In this document: positions 5,415-30,297 of the stretch, in pieces
Layout of the letters: each line of letters starts with the position of its first letter
How positions within the stretch are numbered: the stretch's first letter is position 1
IMG/VR virus record: IMGVR_UViG_3300028596_000009
Span: 102,824-166,823 of that record
Direction: 5' to 3' (one strand)
Length of the DNA: 64,000 bases
From: a virus
The notes under the pieces: generated by a model
Seen by the model: only the letters and a program-made list of their open reading frames with translations
What the model was told of the DNA's origin: nothing
Database searches by the model: none
Made by a program: the position numbers and the translations under genes

Positions 5415-6140
5415 ATGAAGAAGAGCACGGCGAAGAAGTCCACGGTCGTCATATCCATGCTGGGCGCCCTGCTGATGACGGCGGCCCCGGCCCAGGCTCT
5501 GACGCCCGGACAGGTGAGCAGCGGTACCGGCTGGACGCTCGGCTACTCCGACCAGGTCACCTCGATCGCCCCGGTGACCTACACGATCACCTTCGACTCG
5601 GTCGCCGCCCGCACCCGCCTCAAGCCGTACATGCAGGCCATCGCCACCCACACGCAGACCCTGACGCCGGGCACGACGTTCGTCGTCTCGGACACCATCG
5701 CCCCGCAGACGTACCCCGGCTGCCAGACCACGCGGACCATCTCGCTGTCCCTGTCGTACCGGCCGACCGGCCAGGCGGGCATGGCGTGGGGCGGCGCCTG
5801 CTACATGCTCAGCGACCACAGCCTGCACTCCGGCCTCATGCGCATCAACACCGAGTGGTGGTACCCGAACTGGTTCTCGTCCAACGCCACCACGAACGAG
5901 CAGTGGATCAAGAACGCGGTCATCCACGAGTTCGGCCACGCCATCGGCCTCGGCCACCCGAACAAGGATCTCGACAAGGACGGTGTCGTCGAGGCCCACG
6001 AGTGCGTGAAGAACACCGACGGCTGGCTCCCCGTCCTGTGCTCCCCGAACGGCGGCAGCCGCAACGCGAACGCGGGCAAGTGGACGTTCCTGGAGCAGGC
6101 GGGCGTGAAGATGCTGACCACCAACTACCAGTACCGCTGA
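5415..6140 (+). CDS. Secreted zinc metalloprotease (metzincin/matrixin-like)
   Basis: Sec signal peptide (KK...hydrophobic...AQA); HEFGHAIGLGH = HExxHxxGxxH. Confidence 0.85.
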   Translation: MKKSTAKKSTVVISMLGALLMTAAPAQALTPGQVSSGTGWTLGYSDQVTSIAPVTYTITFDSVAARTRLKPYMQAIATHTQTLTPGTTFVVSDTIAPQTYPGCQTTRTISLSLSYRPTGQAGMAWGGACYMLSDHSLHSGLMRINTEWWYPNWFSSNATTNEQWIKNAVIHEFGHAIGLGHPNKDLDKDGVVEAHECVKNTDGWLPVLCSPNGGSRNANAGKWTFLEQAGVKMLTTNYQYR

Positions 6141-18958: not shown

Positions 18959-21900
18959 CTAAATGTCGTAGGAACCACGGAAGCAAAGGAACTGAACCGC
19001 CTCCGTATCCGCGTTCTGCCTCCAGGAGAACCCGGAAGAGGAAAGTGTATAGTAATTCGCATACATCGGTGTCGTCGTACTGACAGCATTCGGGCTCACC
19101 ATCGGACGGTACGACCAACCGTTATTCAGCGACCACGTCACTGTGCCGTTTCGCTGGGTGGCTACCGTAGCTACCGCGATAGCCCGGAAAACCCCGTAGT
19201 TGTCGTTCAGCTCCGAGCCGTGAGGCATGGTCCCCTCAAGCAGAAGCTCGTTGCCGGTGTCGCCCCAACTGATGCTGGCAACCACCGAACTGTCGACCCA
19301 CTCCTTGTAGATGGCCATACCGCCACCGGTCTTGAAGTTCAGGTCGACGCGGCCCGTGCTGTTCCGGGTGATCTCCGGCCCCACGATGCCGAACGAGTAC
19401 GGCGTCCACCCTCCCGTACCGGCGCCGTCGGCGGCGAAGATGTTGGTGTCCTGGTCGCCGGGGCCCGGGGTGTCGATACGGATACCGGCCTGGCCCAGGT
19501 AGTTGGCGCTCTGGCTGATGACGACTCGCGGCACACCGGAGGCCGGAACCGTGGTCTGGTAGACCGAGCCGGTGATCGTGTGCTTGACCGTCAGTGCGTC
19601 CGCCTTGATCTGAGTCGCCGTCACCGAGTCGGCAGCCAGCAGCGGCGTGTTGATCATGCCGTCGCCGATGTAGACCGACGACTCCTGCCAGATCGAGAAC
19701 TCGGACAGCCGCACCACGTTTCCGGCCGGGACGTTCGTCCACTGCGTCCAACCGTAAAGGGCGACAGCAGCCGTGTTCGCCGGAGGGCTGACGCCCGCCC
19801 CGGTGCTGGTGGTGATGATGGCGTCCTGGTTCGGGGCGGTGTAGTTCGTCGTACCGATGATGGCCAGGTTGCTGATCTGGTTTCCCGCGCGGTCGAAGAA
19901 CTTGGCGAAGAGCTGAACGGCCAGCGTCGCACCCACCGGCCATGCGGCAGCCGCCGGGATCTCCACACGCATACGGGCCTTCAGGCCGCCTACCACCTGA
20001 GATCCGTTACGGGTGAGCTGCTGAAGCTGTCCGATGTTCACACCGGTGAGGGTGTTGCCCAGCGGAAGCGACAGGATCGTGTTGTTCAGCAGAGAGAAAC
20101 GGGCGGTCTGCGTGGTGGTCAGCGGCCCCTTCGTGCCGACGGCCTTGCCGCCCGAGACCGACCACGTGATGTCCGACGAGGAAGTGCCTGAGAGCGCCGA
20201 GGTGGCCACACGGAAGGCGTTCAGGTCCGGGTCTCGGAGCTGCGGGTCGGCAACCAGGTTGTTCGTCTCACCGATCGACAGGCGGTCGACCGTCAGCGAG
20301 TACGCCTTGATCTTCTCGGCGGTGATCGTACCGGCGGCAATGTTGTTCGCCGTGATCGAGTTGGCCTCGATGTCCGGGCCGACAACGCCGACGACAACGA
20401 TGCTGGAGACGTCGGACACCGTGGTCGAGTCGTTGCCCGCCGTGTCGTAGGCGGTGAACCGGAAGTACAGGGTGTCGCCGATGCCCCAGTTGAGCTGGGC
20501 GTCCTCACCGGTGACGATAACCGCGCTGCCCGGCTCGAAGATCTCTCCGATCCTGGTGAACGGACCGGCGCCCGACAACGACATCTCGACCTGGATCGAG
20601 GCAAACCGTGCGGGCATCGGCTGACCGGCCGAGTCGTTGCCGTCCCACTCGACCTTCACCGTGGACAGGCGGCTGGACAGCACAGGGTCCGACGGCTTGG
20701 GCATGCCCGTGGTGGGCCACGCCATGACGGCCGAGACCTCGTTGCTGTACTCGCCGACACGACCGCCCAGGCCGATGGCCGCCACACCGAAGTAGTACGT
20801 CTCGCCGGAGTCGAGGTTGTTGATGTGGCCGACGATCCTGTTGCCCGGCGTCGCGTTCAGCGGGTGGCGGACCGAGTTGCTCAGCGACATGTCCTCGGGC
20901 GACGAAGCGGGCCGGGCATAGAAGCTGTACCTGGCCATGCCCATGCTGTTGCCGTCGACATCGACGAAGACCGGGTCGAACTCGACCCTCGCCCGCGCCT
21001 TCGGCTCACCGGCCGGATTGAAGTACCCCGTGGACGTGACCACGAGGTTCCCCGGGATGCTCGGCTCCTGGTTGGTCGGGTCCGGCTGGGGGATGGGGAT
21101 CGGGTTGGTGCCGCCGCCACCGCCAGCTCCAGGCCCTCCCTGTCCCGTGACACGGTTGACCCACCGCTCGTTGCGCATCTGGCGTTCGAGGAAGCGGTCG
21201 TTCAGGGTGAGGTGGATGACCATGCCGGTCGGCTCGGTGCCTGCCAGCGTGATCTGGTACACCCGAAGAGGTTCGAGCTGATTGCCGTTCTCGGTGCGCC
21301 CTCGGATCACGTCACCGGGGCGGTAGTCGTAGAAGGGCACAGGAAGGCCCTCACGCCAGGTGATCTGCTTCGTGATCATCATGCGCGGCTGGCTGCGGGA
21401 CGACAGCACATAGGCGCCCACCTGAGCCATGGTGGAAAGGTCGGAAACACCACCGGCCTGCATGAGATCCTCCCACTCGCCCCACGGCGGATCGGGAGAA
21501 AGCGGCGGCATCTCCACCACCCGGCTGATGCCCTTGTCGCCCTGCACAATGATCGTGCGGGTGTAGTCCTCCAGTGTCCGGTCCACCGGCTCTTCGAGGT
21601 GCGAGGCGGTCGGGTGCAGGATGACACCGCCGCTGTCTATCGCGAGGTTCCGGCGCAGCTCGGTGTTCGGGCGGTACAACTCCAGGGTGCGGCCCAGCAT
21701 GCGCCAGTCGGCCAGCCCCTGAGAAGTGAGGGCGTCGAGGATCGACCAGGCGTCCTGCCCGTACTCGTACTCGACGGTGTAGGTGTCGTCCCAGGGAATG
21801 CCTGCGGAGTCCTCGGTGGGGCCGAAGTTGTACGCCAGCCCGGGAATGTTGCCCCGGAGCTTCGACTCCTCGATCAGGGCGCTCAGCGCGTCACCCGGCG

Positions 21901-22294
21901 TGGTGTTGGCGAACCGGCGCCGGTTCTCCTTGTTCACCAGGGCCTTGTTGGTGAACCTGACCTTCTTCAGCATCCAGCCGTACGACGGCATCGTGTACGT
22001 GACGTGGCCCGGCCGGATCATCAGGTCGTGCTGGCGGCGCAGGTTCAGGAAACGGAATCCGGTCTGCTCGCCGTACCCTCCGGTGACCGGATTGCGCAGC
22101 CGGAAAACCACCTCGCACGGCTGCTCCAGCAGCTCGATGCTGGGCGAGTCTTTCGGGTAGACCATCGTCAGTGACGACATGTCGTTGATCGGGACGGAAA
22201 TCTCCCACGAAAGCGGGTGGGGTATGGAACCCCTCAGGTCACCGTTCGGCTCATAGACCTGGAACCTTCCGATGAGACTGTTCTGTGCCGCCAT
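18959..22294 (-). CDS. Minor tail protein (Tal/hub with FN3-like domains and receptor-binding C-terminus)
   Basis: Follows Dit; hub-like N-terminus, FN3 motifs (YYFGVAA, YFRFTAYDTAGN), ITANNIAAGTITAEKI repeat. Confidence 0.85.
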   Translation of the reverse strand: MAAQNSLIGRFQVYEPNGDLRGSIPHPLSWEISVPINDMSSLTMVYPKDSPSIELLEQPCEVVFRLRNPVTGGYGEQTGFRFLNLRRQHDLMIRPGHVTYTMPSYGWMLKKVRFTNKALVNKENRRRFANTTPGDALSALIEESKLRGNIPGLAYNFGPTEDSAGIPWDDTYTVEYEYGQDAWSILDALTSQGLADWRMLGRTLELYRPNTELRRNLAIDSGGVILHPTASHLEEPVDRTLEDYTRTIIVQGDKGISRVVEMPPLSPDPPWGEWEDLMQAGGVSDLSTMAQVGAYVLSSRSQPRMMITKQITWREGLPVPFYDYRPGDVIRGRTENGNQLEPLRVYQITLAGTEPTGMVIHLTLNDRFLERQMRNERWVNRVTGQGGPGAGGGGGTNPIPIPQPDPTNQEPSIPGNLVVTSTGYFNPAGEPKARARVEFDPVFVDVDGNSMGMARYSFYARPASSPEDMSLSNSVRHPLNATPGNRIVGHINNLDSGETYYFGVAAIGLGGRVGEYSNEVSAVMAWPTTGMPKPSDPVLSSRLSTVKVEWDGNDSAGQPMPARFASIQVEMSLSGAGPFTRIGEIFEPGSAVIVTGEDAQLNWGIGDTLYFRFTAYDTAGNDSTTVSDVSSIVVVGVVGPDIEANSITANNIAAGTITAEKIKAYSLTVDRLSIGETNNLVADPQLRDPDLNAFRVATSALSGTSSSDITWSVSGGKAVGTKGPLTTTQTARFSLLNNTILSLPLGNTLTGVNIGQLQQLTRNGSQVVGGLKARMRVEIPAAAAWPVGATLAVQLFAKFFDRAGNQISNLAIIGTTNYTAPNQDAIITTSTGAGVSPPANTAAVALYGWTQWTNVPAGNVVRLSEFSIWQESSVYIGDGMINTPLLAADSVTATQIKADALTVKHTITGSVYQTTVPASGVPRVVISQSANYLGQAGIRIDTPGPGDQDTNIFAADGAGTGGWTPYSFGIVGPEITRNSTGRVDLNFKTGGGMAIYKEWVDSSVVASISWGDTGNELLLEGTMPHGSELNDNYGVFRAIAVATVATQRNGTVTWSLNNGWSYRPMVSPNAVSTTTPMYANYYTLSSSGFSWRQNADTEAVQFLCFRGSYDI

Positions 22295-22295
22295 C

Positions 22296-23135
22296 TCACA
22301 CCACCGCTGCTCGGGCTCGAATCACCACAGGTCCGGCTGTTTCCGTGGAGACGATCTGAACCTGAGAAGTCACCGTCAAACTGGATCCGCCCGACCTGGA
22401 GGTAATCGTAAACGGACCGAGATCGGTGAACACCATTCGACTGGAAACGTTGGTCCCGGTGAAGGTCCACACAGGGGAAGTGACGATGTGTGCTATCAGG
22501 TTGTAGGGGTCCATCAGAAGGTACTGTCCGGACGGAACCGTCAGACTTCCCTTGGTCCAGTTGACCGCCGTGTTGGACACCACGTCCCTGACCGTGATCG
22601 ACCCGACCGGTCCCGGCACACGGATCAGGGAATCGACGATGGGGGCCGTGGTGGAAAGCCCCACGTTGGACGTCGTGGTGTTGTTGATGGCGAAGCCCTG
22701 CTCGACATAGGGGCCACGCCAGGAGCCGCCGGGAATGTTGAAGATGATCTGCACATCGGCACGGTTGGTCGAGCAGAAGAAGTCCGGCGAAGTCGTCGAC
22801 ACGAGCTGCCCGTCGGCCGTCTCGGTGTTCGTCCCACGGACCCTGGTCAGTTCGACCGGCTGATTGTTGCCCATGCCGAACGCGCCGGTCAGGCTGTTCC
22901 ACAGACCCCGCAGATCGTTCGCGTCGTCGCCCTGCACACGGACCTTCAGACCCAGCGTGATGGCCGACATCGGATCGTCCCACTTCGGGATCTGGTAATG
23001 CGTAGCAGGAATCTCCACGACCGCCCGGCGCGGAGCCAGGGCAGGGGCGTACTCCGTCTCCTTCAGGAGCCAGATGCCCCGCGTCTGCGTCGTGCCGGGG
23101 ATCGTAAAGCCGTTCAGGCCGTACTGCGTAGACAC
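22296..23135 (-). CDS. Distal tail protein (Dit-like)
   Basis: Directly after the tape measure gene, 279 aa, beta-rich. Confidence 0.75.
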   Translation of the reverse strand: MSTQYGLNGFTIPGTTQTRGIWLLKETEYAPALAPRRAVVEIPATHYQIPKWDDPMSAITLGLKVRVQGDDANDLRGLWNSLTGAFGMGNNQPVELTRVRGTNTETADGQLVSTTSPDFFCSTNRADVQIIFNIPGGSWRGPYVEQGFAINNTTTSNVGLSTTAPIVDSLIRVPGPVGSITVRDVVSNTAVNWTKGSLTVPSGQYLLMDPYNLIAHIVTSPVWTFTGTNVSSRMVFTDLGPFTITSRSGGSSLTVTSQVQIVSTETAGPVVIRARAAVV

Positions 23136-23148
23136 GGCTCTCCTTTCC

Positions 23149-26100
23149 TCAGACTCCGTTCAGCGTCGCAGCGTACGCCAGGGACCGGTTGATGGTGGTG
23201 CTGGTGGGCTCTGCCTGCGGGTACTGGTTGTTCACGGTGATACGAGTACCGGCACCACCGCCGATCATCGCGATCCGGGGCACCTGACTGTTCGCGGGCA
23301 TCCGCTGGATCATGCCGCTGCCGGACTGCATCTGCCGCAGGCTGACCTTCCGGACGTTGACACTGCCGCCCGAGGCGAACTGCGGGTAGCCGTAGCCCCT
23401 GCCGTACCTGCCGGAGTTGATCGCCTCCAGCAGCGCGCCGAACCGACTGGCCTGCTTGGCGTTGATGACGAACTCGCCGTCGGACAGCATCGCCGGGATC
23501 GAGTCGGACGTGCCCGTACCAGGACCCGCGATCCAGCCACCGGTGGCTGCTTCCATCGTCGAGGGCGGGCTGTTCTTCTGGTAGTAGTAGTAGCCGACCG
23601 AGACCGTCGCTGACCTGGTCAGGTTCGCCTGGATCGTCTCGCCCGTGCTCCAACTGTTCTGGCGCATCTGCTGAAGGTCGCTGTCGAAAGCGCTCTGGTT
23701 GACCTCCGGTGTCGGGTCCATCCAGCCGTTCAGACGGTCGCGCCACTTGCCCGTCCACTCGCGCAGCTTGTTCAGGCCCTGCTGGAACACGTCCGGGTAG
23801 ACGTTCGGAGTGCCCGTGGGCGACAGGCCGCTCTTCGTCTGCTGCGACTGTGCGATCCCCTTCAGCAGCTCCAGCACACGCAGGTACTCAGCGGGGTCAA
23901 GCTTTCCGTTGCCGTCCGCATCGAAGTCGCCCGCCTCGCCCCTCGCCTTGGCCAGGGTGTTCAGGGCGTCCATCGTGGTCTCGAACTGCTCGGTGGTGAG
24001 CTTCGCCTCGGCCTTCGGGTCGAGCGCGCCGGAGCCGACGACCAGGGTGACCAGCTCCTCCAGCTTGGTCATCTCGGTGGTGTACTGCTCAGTGGTCAGC
24101 TTGCCCTCGGCGTTCAGGTCGAGCGCGTCGCTCGCGTTGAGCAGGTTGACCTGTGCCTCCAGGCGGGCCACGGCAGCGGCGTACTCGGCATCGTCCAGGG
24201 TGGCGTCGCCGTTCAGGTCGAACGCGCCGACGGCGTTCTGTGCCTTTACCCAGTCGGCCAACTGGCTTGCCTCACCGGTGTACAGCGCGGTGACCAGCTC
24301 GGCAGCCGCCTTGATGTCCAGAGCGCCGGACTGCACCAGGCTCAGGGCGTACGTCTGAAGCTTCGTGGCGTCGCCCCGGAACTTCTCCAGGTCGAGTGCG
24401 ATCTCCTTGGTGATGACGTCCTTGGAGATCAGGTCGCCGAGGGTCTCCAGCGCCTTTGTGGCCTTCTGCACAGAGCCGCCGGGCTTCATCGCCTGGTCGA
24501 GCGCGTTGGCCGTGGCGTCGGCGAAGAGCTGGCCGGTCTCAGCGCCCTTTCCGGCAATGGCGACCTGCCCCTTGGTCACCGCAGCACCGAATGCCTCCTG
24601 ACCCTGCTTTCCGTACGCGCTCATCTGGGCGATGAAGTCTGCCTTCTCCTTGTCGCCCAGCTTCAGAGCCTGCGCCAGCATGGGGGCGGCGTCGATACCC
24701 ATGTCGCGGAACGCACTGGCCACGGCCGGGGAAAGCTCATTGACCGCGCGAACCAGGTTCTTCTCCCAGTCCCTGGTGACAGTGAGCTGGTCCTTGATCG
24801 CCTGACTGAACGCATCGAACGACTTGGTCATCGCTTCAATGTTGATCTTCCCTGCCCGGAATGCGGCAACGAAGCTGTCGGCACTCTCAAACTCGATCGC
24901 CTCGAAACCGGCCTGAAGGGCGCGCATGGGATCCAGCGAAGCGCCGATGGCACTGGCCATGGCCGTGATGTCGGTGGACAGCGACGAGGCGTTCGAGTCA
25001 GCTTCGTCCAGACTGTTGGCCAGCTCCTCGGCATCGCCCGAAGCCTTGGCGGCCGAGTCGCCGAAGAGAAGGTTGGTGGCGGCCGACTTCTGTAGGTTGC
25101 CCTCGAAGAGGTTGAGGGACTCGGCGATGAGAGCGATGGCGGCCTTCTCTTCCGCGAGCCCCCTCATCTCCTTGTCGAACTGGTCGATGTCGACGATCCC
25201 GCGACCCTTGAGATCCTGCATCTTCTGGTCGATCTCGTCCAGCTCACCCTGGAGGATCTTCGCCGCGTCCTCAGGATTCTCCAGCGCAGACGTCATGGCC
25301 TGCTGAAGTTCGAGCGAGCTGTTGTTCAGCGCCCTCATGGCGCCTTCGGTCTTGAAGATCTCGTTGGTCATCACGGACTGCCGGACCGTGTTCTCCAGCA
25401 TGGCCTGAGCATCGTCCTCAAGAACGATCTTGTGCTCACTGAGGGCATTCGTGACCTGGTCGATGGTCTTCTGCGCCTCGTCCCACTCAGCCACATAGGC
25501 GCGAGCACGCTTGGCCGCGTCGTCCGTACCCTTCGCCTGCTCCCTCAGGGCCTCGATGGTTCCGAACAGAGCGGTGATGCGCGTCTGCTCGGCCTCGGCG
25601 TTCTTGCGGCGCTGCTCGGCGGACTTCCGCTCCTCCGCACTCAGGTCGGCGGCGGCAATGGTGAGTTCCCGGATGACACCGCCACCCTCCTTGGCCGCCG
25701 CCGTGTCGGCCGCGATGGCGTCACCGAGGGCCGTCAAGCCACCCGCCGCCTCGAAGCCCGCCTGCGCGGCATCCCGGATGGCCGTGTCCGCCTTGGTGAA
25801 CTCCTGGTACAGCGTCACGATGCCCGTGATGATCGCGCCGACGGCAATCGCGGAGAACGCCGCACCGAGCAGGGTCACACCACCGGCTGCCGCACGGGCA
25901 GCGACACCGACAGCGCTGAGGCGGGCCGCCATGCCGGTCGTGGAGACGTTGCCGACTGCGGCAAGGCGCTGAGTGGCGGCAGACGCTTCATTAGTGGCTA
26001 CGATGTACCGCTGCGTCGCCGAGGTCATGCGAGCCTGCTGAGTCGCCATGCGCTGGCCATCGGATATGAGGGCCTGGCCTGCGGCGGCGCGGTCGCGAAT

Positions 26101-28497
26101 CGCTTGAATTTCCTGACGAGCTGCATTCACGCCGTTAAGAGCGGTGCGCTGCTGAACCAAGGCATTCGCCTGTGCCGCGCGAGCCTGGTCATTGAAAGCA
26201 GAAATGGATTCGCGACGTGTACGAGCTTCCTCACGAGCCGCCTGAATGTTGCCCAGATAGCTGCGCTGAAGGTTGCTGTTCGACCTGGCGGCCTGATTCG
26301 AACTGTCCCGGTAGGCCCGCATGATGTTGGTCAGCGACAAGCTCTGCACACCGAGACGCTGCTGAGTCTCACGCATGGCGACCATGCTGCGCAGCGTCTG
26401 GAAGGCAGCCATACGAAGAGCGGCCAGAGCGGCGGCGAATCCAAGGACAGCGACAGATCCGGTGGCGAAGTACTTGAAGACGGCAGGCAGCTCCTGGAAG
26501 CCCTCGATCAAGTCCGTGGTGAAGGAGGCTATGTCACCGAGGACAATGATGATTTCCTTGCCGACGCCCGCCAGGAAGGTACCGAAGGCGTCGATCATGT
26601 TGTCGATCTTGACGCGGGCGGTGTCGTACAGGATCGCCGTCTGGTCGGCCAGCTCGGAGTTCTTCGAGAACGCGATCGTGGCGATGTTCGTCTGGTCCGC
26701 AAGCGTGTCGAAGTTCGACGCCAGACGCGAGATGAACTCGATGTCACGGACCGCGCCCACGCCGAGAGAGCGCAGCACATTGGCCACCGATGCGGTCGCC
26801 TCTTCGGCCGACTTGGTGGTGTCCGTGTACTTGCCCATGCCCTGGACGAACTGGCGGAAGAACTCGCCCGGGTCGGTCGACCTGAGGTTCTTGATCTCCT
26901 CCGCCGTCAGGCCCATGACGTCGGTCAGGATGCCCAGCTCGGCGCCCGACGACTTCACCGCGTCGTCCAGCTCACGGAAGATACGGGTCGTCGTACCACG
27001 CGACCACTCGGGCGGCACACGCAGAGAGGCCAGCGCACCGGCCAGGCCGCCAATGTCCTGAGTCGTCAGGCCGAACATCGTCGAGGACGTCGAGATGGCC
27101 TGCGTGACCTTCAGGATCTCGTCCTCAGTCGCGGCCGACGCGGTACCGACCGCGAGAACCATCGACGCGAAGTTGCCCATCTGCTGCGTCGGCAGGTTCT
27201 GCATGTTGCCGATACGGCCGAACAGCACAGCCACCTGATCGGACGCGATGCCGGTGGTGACCGAGAACCGGATGACCGTACGCGAGAACTGCTGGAGCTG
27301 CTCGGTTGCCACACCGGTCTGCGCGGCGAGCTGACCAACCTTCGCCACGTCCTCGAAGCTGATCGGCTCCGTGGTCGCCAGTTCCTCGAACTGCCTCTTG
27401 AGGTTCTCCGACTCGGCCCCGGTCACCTTCGTAACGCGAGCGAGCTGAGCGAACGCCGATTCGTGGCTGATGGCGGCGCCGACCACACTCTCCACCGCGC
27501 TGGTCGCCGTCTGCGACATGCGCCGGTACGCCGTCTCCAGCTCTGACAGATCCTGACGCAGAATGTTTCCGGCCGCGCCGCCCTCCCGGAGGCGCTGATT
27601 CAACGTCTGCTGAGCCCGAGCGGAAGCCTGCTGCGCGTTGGCAAGAGCCACTAGGGCTCGCTGGACCGCCTGAGCTGCCTGAGCCGCCTGCCGCTGAGCC
27701 TGGACAGCGAAGGTCGAACCACGGGTCTGCGCCTGCTGAGCTATCTGAGCGGTCCGCGCGGCGTTCTGCTGAGCAAGCGCAAGAGCACGAGTTGCCTGAG
27801 TCAGTCGCTGATCCGTCGCCGTGAGCTGAGCACCCGTACGGTTCGCATTGGCCTGTGCCGTGGCCACCTGACTGGCGGACGAGGCAACCCGCTGATTCGA
27901 CTGAGCCTGAGAGTTCGCCGCATTCGCCTGCGCCTGTGCCGTCTTCAGCTTGGCCTGGGCAAGACGCTCCTCGGCAATGGCCTGATCGGTGATCGCCTTC
28001 TTCGCCCGGTCCCGCTCCTTGGCCTCCGCCGCCTGAGCCTGCGTACCACGCTGCGTCGCCGCCGACATCTGGTTCTGCGCAGTCGCCATCCGCTGGAGAA
28101 CGGTGGCCATCTGGGTGTAGAGCGAGAGGGTGCGCTGAAGCCGCTGGTGCTCCTTCTCACCCATACCGCGCATGGTGGCCATGACCTTCGCCAGCTTCTC
28201 GAAGGTCTTCTCCATGGCCTTGGTGCCATTGACCGAGCTGCTCTGCGCCTTACCCAGCGCCGTGACCATCGACGCGTAACTGCGGACGACGCCGATCATC
28301 TTCTGGTAGACGCCGAGAGCCCGGTTCAACTCCCCGGCCTGCGTCTTGTTGACCTGTCCGACGTGCTGGAGCGTCTTGTTCAGATTCTTGAAGATCTGCT
28401 CCATCGAGCCACCAGCCTTGGTGACCTGCTGAGCACCCTGAGAGAACGCCCTCAGGTCCAGGCTGATCCTGGCTACAGCGTCGAACTGGCTGGCCAC
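23149..28497 (-). CDS. Tape measure protein
   Basis: 1782 aa, Ala-rich helical, TP901-like core, TM segments, C-terminal GPGTGTSDSIPAMLSDGEFV motif. Confidence 0.95.
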   Translation of the reverse strand: MASQFDAVARISLDLRAFSQGAQQVTKAGGSMEQIFKNLNKTLQHVGQVNKTQAGELNRALGVYQKMIGVVRSYASMVTALGKAQSSSVNGTKAMEKTFEKLAKVMATMRGMGEKEHQRLQRTLSLYTQMATVLQRMATAQNQMSAATQRGTQAQAAEAKERDRAKKAITDQAIAEERLAQAKLKTAQAQANAANSQAQSNQRVASSASQVATAQANANRTGAQLTATDQRLTQATRALALAQQNAARTAQIAQQAQTRGSTFAVQAQRQAAQAAQAVQRALVALANAQQASARAQQTLNQRLREGGAAGNILRQDLSELETAYRRMSQTATSAVESVVGAAISHESAFAQLARVTKVTGAESENLKRQFEELATTEPISFEDVAKVGQLAAQTGVATEQLQQFSRTVIRFSVTTGIASDQVAVLFGRIGNMQNLPTQQMGNFASMVLAVGTASAATEDEILKVTQAISTSSTMFGLTTQDIGGLAGALASLRVPPEWSRGTTTRIFRELDDAVKSSGAELGILTDVMGLTAEEIKNLRSTDPGEFFRQFVQGMGKYTDTTKSAEEATASVANVLRSLGVGAVRDIEFISRLASNFDTLADQTNIATIAFSKNSELADQTAILYDTARVKIDNMIDAFGTFLAGVGKEIIIVLGDIASFTTDLIEGFQELPAVFKYFATGSVAVLGFAAALAALRMAAFQTLRSMVAMRETQQRLGVQSLSLTNIMRAYRDSSNQAARSNSNLQRSYLGNIQAAREEARTRRESISAFNDQARAAQANALVQQRTALNGVNAARQEIQAIRDRAAAGQALISDGQRMATQQARMTSATQRYIVATNEASAATQRLAAVGNVSTTGMAARLSAVGVAARAAAGGVTLLGAAFSAIAVGAIITGIVTLYQEFTKADTAIRDAAQAGFEAAGGLTALGDAIAADTAAAKEGGGVIRELTIAAADLSAEERKSAEQRRKNAEAEQTRITALFGTIEALREQAKGTDDAAKRARAYVAEWDEAQKTIDQVTNALSEHKIVLEDDAQAMLENTVRQSVMTNEIFKTEGAMRALNNSSLELQQAMTSALENPEDAAKILQGELDEIDQKMQDLKGRGIVDIDQFDKEMRGLAEEKAAIALIAESLNLFEGNLQKSAATNLLFGDSAAKASGDAEELANSLDEADSNASSLSTDITAMASAIGASLDPMRALQAGFEAIEFESADSFVAAFRAGKINIEAMTKSFDAFSQAIKDQLTVTRDWEKNLVRAVNELSPAVASAFRDMGIDAAPMLAQALKLGDKEKADFIAQMSAYGKQGQEAFGAAVTKGQVAIAGKGAETGQLFADATANALDQAMKPGGSVQKATKALETLGDLISKDVITKEIALDLEKFRGDATKLQTYALSLVQSGALDIKAAAELVTALYTGEASQLADWVKAQNAVGAFDLNGDATLDDAEYAAAVARLEAQVNLLNASDALDLNAEGKLTTEQYTTEMTKLEELVTLVVGSGALDPKAEAKLTTEQFETTMDALNTLAKARGEAGDFDADGNGKLDPAEYLRVLELLKGIAQSQQTKSGLSPTGTPNVYPDVFQQGLNKLREWTGKWRDRLNGWMDPTPEVNQSAFDSDLQQMRQNSWSTGETIQANLTRSATVSVGYYYYQKNSPPSTMEAATGGWIAGPGTGTSDSIPAMLSDGEFVINAKQASRFGALLEAINSGRYGRGYGYPQFASGGSVNVRKVSLRQMQSGSGMIQRMPANSQVPRIAMIGGGAGTRITVNNQYPQAEPTSTTINRSLAYAATLNGV

Positions 28498-28932
28498 CTA
28501 GTCCTCCTGACCGGTGTAGGACGAGAACCTGGAAGGAAGCGGCTTCCCCTCCCAGATGTTGTGAGCCGAGACGTACCTGGTTTCACCCGGGCGCGCCTTC
28601 CTCTTCGCCCTGCCGTCACCGGAGACACTGTCCCTGTCCTTCTCCAGCTCGGCACACGAGTAGCAGACGGACGACTTGACCGTGAACGCGATCTCATTGT
28701 TGGTGGAACGGCCCAGCCACGCAGGCGTGCCGCAGCCACCGCATGTCTCATCCTCAAGAAGAGTCAGCGCCACTGCCAGCATCTTGTTCCTCGGGTCGGA
28801 CCATCCCTTTTTGCACTTCTTCTCGTTCAGCAGGTCAAGAGGCGGAACTCCCCACGACCTCGCCGTCTTCAGCACCGGCACGGCCCACCGGTTCTGCGGC
28901 CACGTCAGCGCCTCCGCCAGGAAATCCGGCAT
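28498..28932 (-). CDS. Tail assembly chaperone, second frame (gpT-like)
   Basis: Between chaperone 1 and the tape measure gene; overlaps chaperone 1 in the +1 frame. Confidence 0.75.
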   Translation of the reverse strand: MPDFLAEALTWPQNRWAVPVLKTARSWGVPPLDLLNEKKCKKGWSDPRNKMLAVALTLLEDETCGGCGTPAWLGRSTNNEIAFTVKSSVCYSCAELEKDRDSVSGDGRAKRKARPGETRYVSAHNIWEGKPLPSRFSSYTGQED

Positions 28933-29662
28933 CGATCCGGCTCGCCCACTCGGCGGACGCGTCGAGCTTCTTGTTCAGGGCCGTCAGCAGGCGCATCAGC
29001 TCGGAGCTGATCAGGGCGTCGAGAAGGCTGCCGAAGCCGTCCTGCGACGGCACAGAACGCAGCGGACGGACGAACTTCTCCCCACGCTCCTCGGCCGCCT
29101 TCTCCAGCTTGTCGCTGCGCTCCTTCTCCGCCGGGGTCTCCCAGCCGATGCAATACGCAGTGAGCTGGTGCAGCAGAAGCATGCGGGTGCGGCCAGTGAT
29201 GTGCTCGACGTCCGTCTCGTCGAACTTCCCGTTGACCTTCGAGTACTCCTTGTCGGCCTTGCGCAGCACCTTGCCGAACTTGTCCGGGGTGCTCGACCTG
29301 AAGTGGAGGATCATGGCGGTGCTCCAGATCTTCTGCTTCAGAGCATCCATCTGGGGTTCGAGGTCGGCGACGTTCCGCTCGAACGTGTCGATCTCCTCGG
29401 CTATGTCGGAGAGCTGGTCGTCGCCCATCGACATGGTGCCGCTCTCCATCAGGAGGCGCTGCTTCTCCCGAAGAGAACGGATCATCTGGACGTCGGCCTC
29501 GTACTCGTCGATGAGGTCGGCCAGTTCCGAACCGGCGGCCTGGTCCAGGTAGACCCGGTGCCAGAACGAGGGGAAGGTCGACTTCCCCGCCACGTAGTCC
29601 TCGAAGCTGAAGTTGTCCGAGCCCGGCACCTGGTCGAGCCCGGACTTCTTCTCGTCGTTCAT
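28835..29662 (-). CDS. Tail assembly chaperone (gpG-like)
   Basis: Position after the major tail gene. Confidence 0.75.
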   Translation of the reverse strand: MNDEKKSGLDQVPGSDNFSFEDYVAGKSTFPSFWHRVYLDQAAGSELADLIDEYEADVQMIRSLREKQRLLMESGTMSMGDDQLSDIAEEIDTFERNVADLEPQMDALKQKIWSTAMILHFRSSTPDKFGKVLRKADKEYSKVNGKFDETDVEHITGRTRMLLLHQLTAYCIGWETPAEKERSDKLEKAAEERGEKFVRPLRSVPSQDGFGSLLDALISSELMRLLTALNKKLDASAEWASRIDAGFPGGGADVAAEPVGRAGAEDGEVVGSSAS

Positions 29663-29760: not shown

Positions 29761-30297
29761 TCAGCTACCGCAGATGCCGACCTGGACGATGCCGTCCGAC
29801 GACTCACCCTGCGCGTAGAACACGACCTCCATCTGCACCGGCGCCGTGGCGTCGTTGACGACGTTGGGGTCGCCGGACAGGAACTTGAACACGGTGATGT
29901 AGTCGCCGTCCGCCGCGTCCGGAACGTTGCGCGGGTGCTTGCCGATGCGCTGCACCAGGTAGCCGGGCTGGAGCGGCGTCTTGAACAGCTCCAGCGCCTC
30001 GTTGTACACCGACTCCGGCTTCGCGTCGCCGAGGTCCCGGTCGAGGAAGAAGTTGAGGGTGCCCTCGTAGTTCTTCTTCGTGGGGTTGGCCACGTTGGCG
30101 TCGTCGCACAGACCACCGGTGTCGTCGGTGTCGCGCTCGGTCCAGCCCAGCGTCAGGTCGGTGGTGAGGGCGCAGGAGATGTTCACACCCGCGTTGATCT
30201 CCGCCGCCGTCGGGCAGTTCACGTTCGCGATGCCCGCCGGGATGGGGACCCACCACACGGTCACATTTGGGGGCAACATTTTCACTTCGTTTGCCAT
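29761..30297 (-). CDS. Major tail tube protein
   Basis: PTAAEINAGVNISCAL, GYLVQRIG motifs typical of actinophage tail tubes; strong codon bias. Confidence 0.9.
   Translation of the reverse strand: MANEVKMLPPNVTVWWVPIPAGIANVNCPTAAEINAGVNISCALTTDLTLGWTERDTDDTGGLCDDANVANPTKKNYEGTLNFFLDRDLGDAKPESVYNEALELFKTPLQPGYLVQRIGKHPRNVPDAADGDYITVFKFLSGDPNVVNDATAPVQMEVVFYAQGESSDGIVQVGICGS

Follow-up and report, generated by a model that had tools for sequence, protein, structure and literature searches.

A candidate Ca2+-binding loop in the 33-residue repeat module of a phage tape measure protein

An uncultured Streptomyces-type phage represented by IMG/VR record IMGVR_UViG_3300028596_000009 encodes, within the 64,000-nucleotide (nt) stretch analyzed here (positions 102,824 to 166,823 of that record; hereafter the window), a tape measure protein (TMP) of 1782 amino acids (aa), P0001, whose distal part contains a module of 33-aa helix-loop units. 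Unit 5 of this module carries a loop with the canonical EF-hand pattern (loop 5) and unit 2 carries a near-canonical one (loop 2). As judged from sequence, unit 5 probably forms a structural Ca2+ site, and unit 2 probably a weaker one. Such a site would stiffen or stabilize the folded state of the distal TMP module. That the loops bind Ca2+ at all is what we infer from their ligand pattern and its conservation among related proteins.

The 12-residue core of loop 5 (aa 1526-1537, nt 23887-23922) matches PROSITE pattern PS00018 exactly and is the sole match both in P0001 and in the six-frame translation of the whole window; the same scan found no PS00018-exact loop at window positions 5415-6140. 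The pattern occurred in 0.35% of 20,000 shuffles of P0001 and in 0 of 78 C-terminal parts of unrelated TMPs, each up to about 830 aa long and selected from IMG/VR by a common C-terminal motif. Loop 2 (core aa 1427-1438, nt 24184-24219) lies 99 aa upstream of loop 5 and fails the pattern at position 6 only. The initial annotation had placed a canonical and a near-canonical EF-hand loop, three periods apart, at these positions, and both descriptions proved correct. With the Pfam EF-hand_1 profile (gathering cut-off 25.4 bits), the module fragment of P0001 scored 27.0 bits. The modules of P0003, P0005 and the Streptomyces phage Frankenweenie scored 30.7-32.7 bits, that of P0010 22.5 bits and that of P0016 18.3 bits, and P0003 also has precomputed Pfam EF-hand matches in the protein collection that we searched.

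Both loops are embedded in a strictly periodic array. Corresponding segments begin at aa 1391, 1424, 1457, 1490 and 1523, a spacing of exactly 33 aa, and the BLOSUM autocorrelation over aa 1390-1587 peaks at lag 33 (0.98 versus a shuffle mean of -0.77, z = 11.3), with the next peak at lag 66. A unit opens with a loop of some 12 residues and continues as an amphipathic helix of about 21. A repeat hidden Markov model (HMM) recognized five clear in-register units (aa 1390-1554) and one degenerate sixth (aa 1555-1587), and gave a putative upstream unit at aa ~1357 a score below 0. About seven repeats had been proposed originally; the 33-aa period holds exactly, but the seventh unit is unsupported. 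The loops of units 1, 3 and 4 are not ligand sets. That of unit 3 is replaced by G-V-G-G-E-G in P0004 and P0006, so unit 3 is not a conserved site. Unit 6 aligns with a K-L-N/D-P-K-G unit found directly after the canonical loop elsewhere in the family. Tandem Repeats Finder detected no 99-bp period in the DNA encoding the module, from which it follows that the 33-aa array is ancient, and a search of PHROGs with the module alone returned no family.

Loop 5 is PROSITE-exact in all 12 loop-bearing TMPs, namely P0001 itself, five close metagenomic homologues, those of Frankenweenie and Satis, P0009, P0010, P0016 and that of IMG/VR contig L004. The five close homologues have 66-86% identity in the module, and the ligand residues are kept in 11 of 11 loop-bearing relatives, down to about 30% identity. 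Across the 12 proteins, D1, D/N3, D/N/S5, G6, L8, D/N/S9 and E12 are retained; variation is limited to positions 2, 7, 9, 10, 11 and 13, of which 2, 10 and 11 are free, plus ligand-to-ligand swaps at positions 3 and 5. P0001 and P0002 have D3/N5 and the remainder N3/D5 or D3/S5. The exchange of D3/N5 for N3/D5 therefore preserves the ligand capacity of both positions. In loop 2, D1, N3, D5, A6, L8, D9 and E12 are invariant in six of the six members of the window's clade, and the loop is absent from the clade of cluster-BM Streptomyces phages. Conservation of the loop 5 ligand positions is consistent with purifying selection in two clades. Within the window's clade, two loops have been converted to full sets of oxygen ligands, that of unit 5 canonical and that of unit 2 canonical save for Ala at position 6.

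Searching IMG/VR with the alignment of close modules returned no relatives; the wide alignment of modules contains no stretch of sufficient conservation for such a search. Contig L004 (IMGVR_UViG_3300049571_000380, 192 kb) represents a BM-like uncultured phage whose module has four units and the canonical loop D-V-N-G-D-G-K-L-D-D-D-E-F. A 60.6-kb contig from a much smaller phage (L005) has one weak match to the repeat unit.

The same module, with its 33-aa period, is present in 17 related TMPs. More distant module-bearing proteins, found by a profile search of 1.8 billion representatives, are P0011, P0012, P0014, P0023, P0024, P0036, P0054 and the fragment P0027, with four to six units each. 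The consensus of the generic loop is L-D-P/A-K-G-K-A-x-L-D/N-x-x-x-Y/F, which has Lys at EF-hand positions 3 and 5, Gly at 4 and Ala at 6. Generic units share D1, G4, L8, D/N9 and an aromatic residue at position 13 with EF-hands, and most copies have Lys or other non-ligands at the ligand positions. None of these more distant proteins has a Pfam EF-hand match. Viewed across this family, the 33-aa unit is a building block common to these TMPs, and the Ca2+-type ligand sets are a lineage- and unit-specific specialization.

Generic units, although they have no ligand set at positions 3 and 5, resemble EF-hands as profiles. Aligned by hhalign with 300 genuine EF-hand loops, they gave a probability of 88% (P = 3e-6) with D1 placed on D1, a score reached by 0 of 150 column permutations. 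The module profile retrieves dozens of genuine multi-EF-hand proteins, and 25 of its 26 weak matches in the PDB are EF-hand proteins (best E 0.014). These comparisons are consistent with descent of the generic unit from EF-hand-like loop-helix units or with convergence on them; neither is proven. Asp at position 1 (81%) and Asp/Asn at position 9 are kept even where positions 3 and 5 are Lys, as in P0011, P0012, P0014, P0024 and others. It is tempting to speculate that a lysine ammonium group takes the place of the metal in such loops, giving a Ca2+-independent mimic.

AlphaFold model 1 reached a predicted local distance difference test score (pLDDT) of 66 overall and of about 80 over units 2-5. 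Every loop in it is followed by a helix of some 20 residues, and at loops 2 and 5 the exiting helix sets in at position 10 of the loop, where that of an EF-hand does. At loop 2 the entering helix abuts the loop, at low pLDDT. Overall the model is an up-and-down helical bundle, for which a wide VIA-align search returned generic helical bundles only (Z <= 6.9), an uninformative outcome. Model 2, built for units 4-6 from a 16-sequence alignment, is too poor to interpret (pLDDT 58, predicted template modeling score 0.34). Foldseek found no PDB match at E <= 0.001 for model 1 or model 2, EF-hand proteins were absent from the significant fold matches, and the best score in an ESM Atlas feature search, 0.82, is at chance level.

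Several observations weigh against a Ca2+ site in the module. None of the seven distant TMPs with the module has a canonical loop, and their units orthologous to loop 5 carry Lys, His, Glu, Ile, Ala or Thr at ligand positions. A Ca2+-type site is therefore dispensable for the basic role of the module, and, contrary to what the initial annotation had implied, Ca2+ binding cannot be integral to its working. That annotation had named non-conserved ligand positions in homologues as part of what would refute it; such a lack of conservation is found among the distant homologues and not among the closer ones. For loop 2, Ala at position 6 is seen in 2.2% of 456 loops from genuine multi-EF-hand proteins. 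Full-length P0001 scores 19.8 bits against EF-hand_1, below the cut-off that the fragment passes, and the Pfam alignment spans the loop and exiting helix only (profile positions 8-27 of 29). Neither AlphaFold model, each of low to moderate confidence, contains an EF-hand pair, a strand or an inter-loop bridge. Helices had been described on either side of both loops, and model 1 does place them there, but the entering helix of unit 5 stops some 7 residues short of D1, following a conserved Gly at -3. Unit 5 therefore resembles a loop-helix 'F-hand' more than a classical EF-hand, and, going by the model, 'EF-hand-like loop-helix' is a safer name for it than 'EF-hand'.

Much of this would also be expected if the loops only looked like EF-hands and bound no metal. 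The canonical-looking copies would then be variants of a helix-breaking hinge, with acidic residues serving packing or charge balance inside the tail tube. The generic unit already resembles an EF-hand at D1, G4, L8, D/N9 and the aromatic position 13, yet with K3 and K5 has no ligand set; the predicted entering helix is not contiguous with the loop, the models recover no EF-hand pair fold, and the full-length Pfam score is under the cut-off. A look-alike of this kind is less easily reconciled with the history of loop 5. In two clades the same unit shows four joint changes (3 to N/D, 5 to D/N/S, 6 to G and 12 to E), which thereafter stay fixed along branches at least 0.6-0.9 substitutions per site in length, and the swap between D3/N5 and N3/D5 leaves both positions as ligands. 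By independent draws from the generic-unit columns, a PS00018 match is expected with a probability of only about 0.001 per unit. The canonical loop nevertheless stands at the same unit in two clades that are parted by non-EF relatives. Drift alone is an unlikely source of it. We regard a loop without metal binding as unlikely.

The two clades emerge from a tree of the non-module parts, in which each group of loop-bearing TMPs has a loop-less sister (P0023 and P0011). A single origin of the canonical loop was rejected for the non-module parts, where constraining the loop-bearing proteins to one clade costs 95 log-likelihood units (approximately unbiased test, p = 5.8e-8). A tree of the module without the loop columns again gave two clades, but with this short alignment a single clade was not rejected (p = 0.33). 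These trees allow for two gains in one and the same unit, for several losses or for modules passing between TMPs.

The loop-helix geometry bears on another reading, in which a Ca2+-loaded loop-helix would be a docking surface, as in dockerins, for a partner such as a tail-tip hub, an assembly chaperone or a component of the host envelope, and not an internal stabilizer. The Pfam match covers the loop and exiting helix only, as in dockerin F-hands, and the modules of P0003, P0005 and P0010 have weak matches to Pfam Dockerin_1 (E 0.03-0.2). Those matches reach 12-15 bits, far under the cut-off of 22.9 for Dockerin_1 (PF00404), and are confined to homologues. Furthermore, the candidate loops of P0001 lie 99 residues apart, whereas dockerins have two closely spaced (adjacent 22-residue) loop-helix segments. 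No cohesin-like partner came to light, although no search aimed at one was made. Docking of this kind seems to us very improbable.

Where the module sits in the protein invites a more dynamic interpretation. It falls within the last fifth of the TMP, and a conserved C-terminal block follows about 40 aa after the module end and about 90 aa after loop 5. The TMPs of lambda, T5 and 80-alpha have their C-terminal portion in the tail tip and leave before the DNA; that of lambda forms a trans-envelope channel (PMC12617516). By analogy with these phages, we infer that the present module lies at the tail tip and is first out. The module might then be held in the tail in an extended, metal-free or strained form, and Ca2+ binding to loops 2 and 5 in the Ca2+-rich cell wall might drive refolding that ratchets the TMP out or nucleates a trans-envelope channel. 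Such a switch, the reading put forward in the initial annotation, would be in keeping with the position of the module, with ejection of the lambda TMP as a trans-envelope conduit (PMC12617516), with the stabilization by Ca2+ of the activated tail-tip conformation in lactococcal phage p2 (PMC7472080) and with apparent purifying selection on the ligand positions. Seven related TMPs, however, have Lys, His, Ile or Ala where ligands would be required, so that ejection in this family has no general need of Ca2+ at the module. Only one or two of the six units are metal-capable, and sequence and models do not separate a switch from a static structural site. We consider a switch quite unlikely.

A related proposal, and one to which we give an equally low probability, is a Ca2+-gated folding module. 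Here loops 2 and 5 would not take up Ca2+ until the distal TMP was expelled into the cation-rich wall of Streptomyces, folding energy would help to pull out the TMP or to seed the DNA conduit, and the Lys-type loops would be Ca2+-independent mimics. Were this true, rulers that depend on Ca2+ and rulers that do not would form a natural series within the family, a possible reason for the differing Ca2+ needs of related phages. Under the structural reading that we favor, the site may or may not bear on assembly, on the stability of the virion or on ejection.

Many siphophages, including Streptomyces phages under routine plating, need millimolar Ca2+ to infect. To our knowledge, the molecular site of this requirement is rarely known. 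One concrete candidate would be a conserved EF-hand-type site in the tape measure, which is first out of the tail and builds the DNA conduit. The proposal is directly testable, since cultured phages with this loop (Satis, JustBecause, Kradal, Frankenweenie and others) plate on laboratory strains of Streptomyces, and the Lys-type loops at the orthologous position provide natural controls within the family. If the site is merely structural, a metal-binding repeat would join the short list of elements embedded in TMPs.

P0001 is a tape measure protein, as first annotated. It matches Pfam PF10145 (PhageMin_Tail; 50.7 bits, E 2.6e-13, cut-off 33.2) and PHROGs family phrog_17594, 'tail length tape measure protein' (E 8.9e-68), with several further TMP PHROGs, and aa 313-732 are 40% identical to annotated TMPs of cluster-BM Streptomyces phages. 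The protein has the build of a TMP, being very long and mostly helical with hydrophobic segments and a conserved C-terminal block. Its gene stands in a tail operon whose order, supported by PHROG matches, is major tail protein, two overlapping chaperone open reading frames (ORFs), TMP, and tail genes of 279 and 1111 aa, and which is collinear with those of Satis and Frankenweenie (Table 1). The 1111-aa product matches phrog_38009, 'tail protein'. The chaperone ORFs (28498-28932 and 28835-29662, minus strand) overlap by 98 nt at 28835-28932, and each matches chaperone PHROGs; the overlap is consistent with a programmed frameshift.

Table 1. Tape measure gene, repeat module and neighboring tail genes (nt positions refer to the window, aa positions to P0001)
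Feature	Position (nt)	Strand	Basis and remarks
Tape measure protein gene, P0001, 1782 aa	23149..28497	-	ORF, Pfam and PHROG matches
PhageMin_Tail domain, aa 369-564	26806..27393	-	PF10145, 50.7 bits
Hydrophobic segment, aa 676-700	26398..26472	-	Kyte-Doolittle 19-residue mean up to 1.89
Hydrophobic segment, aa 869-898	25804..25893	-	Kyte-Doolittle 19-residue mean up to 2.27
33-aa helix-loop repeat module, units 1-6, aa 1390-1587	23737..24330	-	Spacing, autocorrelation, AlphaFold helix/loop alternation, 17 related TMPs
Unit 1, aa 1390-1422	24232..24330	-	Degenerate loop D-I-K-A-A-A-E-L-V-T-A-L-Y; in register; repeat-HMM 5.7
Unit 2, aa 1423-1455	24133..24231	-	Carries near-canonical loop 2; repeat-HMM 42.7
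Loop 2, aa 1427-1439, D-L-N-G-D-A-T-L-D-D-A-E-Y	24181..24219	-	Ligand residues D1 N3 D5 D9 E12 complete; Ala for Gly at 6
Unit 3, aa 1456-1488	24034..24132	-	Loop D-L-N-A-E-G-K-L-T-T-E-Q-Y, Gln at 12; repeat-HMM 41.1
Unit 4, aa 1489-1521	23935..24033	-	Loop D-P-K-A-E-A-K-L-T-T-E-Q-F, generic non-binding type, Lys at 3; repeat-HMM 44.1
Unit 5, aa 1522-1554	23836..23934	-	Carries canonical loop 5; repeat-HMM 36.1; Pfam EF-hand_1 match aa 1524-1543
Loop 5, aa 1526-1538, D-A-D-G-N-G-K-L-D-P-A-E-Y	23884..23922	-	Exact PROSITE PS00018; probable Ca2+ site, as judged from sequence
Unit 6, aa 1555-1587	23737..23835	-	Degenerate loop L-S-P-T-G-T-P-N-V; in register at +33
Conserved C-terminal TMP block, aa 1627-1782	23152..23619	-	Motif positions; 37 invariant columns across 12 TMPs
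Two tail assembly chaperone ORFs, directly upstream of TMP gene	28498..29662	-	phrog_20192, E 1.2e-18; phrog_15960, E 2e-4
Major tail protein gene	29761..30297	-	phrog_2491, E 7e-38
Two genes downstream of TMP gene (279 aa, 1111 aa)	18959..23135	-	Collinear with 'minor tail protein' genes of Frankenweenie and Satis; order and sizes as in L001 and L002

The source record is 166,823 bp long, with an estimated completeness of 88%; the window has a G+C content of about 65%. The closest cultured relatives of the phage are the cluster-BM Streptomyces siphophages, whose TMPs share about 40% identity with P0001 over the N-terminal domain and about 30% over the stretch that holds the 33-aa module. Phages of cluster BM are siphoviruses of 185-200 kb with prolate heads and 66.6% G+C (PMC6687918).

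Motifs of the C-terminal block are L-T-R-S-A-T-V, G-G-W-I-x-G-P-G...S-D-x-I-P-A-M-L-S-x-G-E-F-V and I-N-R-S-L-A-Y-A. In IMG/VR, two short patterns taken from it select at least 422 TMP-like genes, which belong to very different phages. In PHROGs, aa 1649-1718 are labeled 'endolysin' (phrog_971), which looks like a mislabeled TMP motif and not a lysin domain. Near the other end of the protein, an Ala/Gln-rich low-complexity helical region (aa ~170-340, window ~27400-28000, minus strand) varies in length among close homologues, and total length is 1782 aa in P0001 and 1832 aa in P0003. A 9-bp tandem repeat lies at window positions 27666-27690. The difference in length suggests that tail length is tuned in the N-terminal Ala/Gln-rich region and not in the module, which has a constant number of 33-aa units within the clade.

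Literature searches found no paper that describes an EF-hand or Ca2+ loop in a TMP, only incidental co-occurrences of the terms. The genome announcements of BM phages make no mention of an EF-hand loop, and GenBank labels the gene only 'tape measure protein'. The TMPs of Satis (MH576962 gp60) and Frankenweenie (OQ921725 gp67) (PMC6687918, PMC10652959) are close counterparts, with the same gene order, TMP architecture and 33-aa module; the unit that carries their PROSITE-exact loop is also the same. They differ from P0001 in sequence, to the extent given above, and in having one canonical loop, with other units of the Lys type, where the window's protein has a canonical and a near-canonical one.

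Other TMPs are known to carry accessory elements, among them the C-terminal peptidoglycan hydrolase of T5 pb2 and peptidoglycan hydrolase motifs elsewhere (PMC12617516). The present module would resemble these in being an extra functional element of the distal TMP, the part that goes out first to act in the host envelope, but the element here is a putative metal-binding loop in a repeat array and not an enzyme. Tandem repeats of 11 aa with aromatic markers have been described in TMPs (Mahony et al. 2016, PMC5099701, as cited in PMC8616913). Going by that citing account, the two kinds of repeat share a regular period and a conserved aromatic residue (here Tyr/Phe at loop position 13), and 33 equals 3 x 11; the units described here differ in bearing a Gly/Pro-containing EF-hand-like loop of about 12 residues and in forming a six-unit array just before the C-terminal block instead of running along the ruler. 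In lactococcal phage p2, baseplate activation depends on Ca2+, and the site lies between loops of the distal tail protein (PMC7472080). There too Ca2+ acts on the structure of a siphophage tail tip and is linked to release of the TMP, although the p2 site is outside the TMP and is not an EF-hand.

Compared with EF-hand loops at large (PS00018; PF00036, PF13202, PF13405), loop 5 has D1, D/N3, N/D5, G6, a hydrophobic residue at 8, D9, E12, an aromatic residue next and a predicted helix from position 10. It differs in being embedded in a virion ruler protein of 1782 aa, in an array where most units are non-binding (Lys at 3 and 5, Ala at 6), and in that the entering helix is predicted to be broken by the conserved Gly at -3, with no paired-hand domain. 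The strict 33-aa period also means that one long helix serves two successive units, leaving the first and leading into the second.

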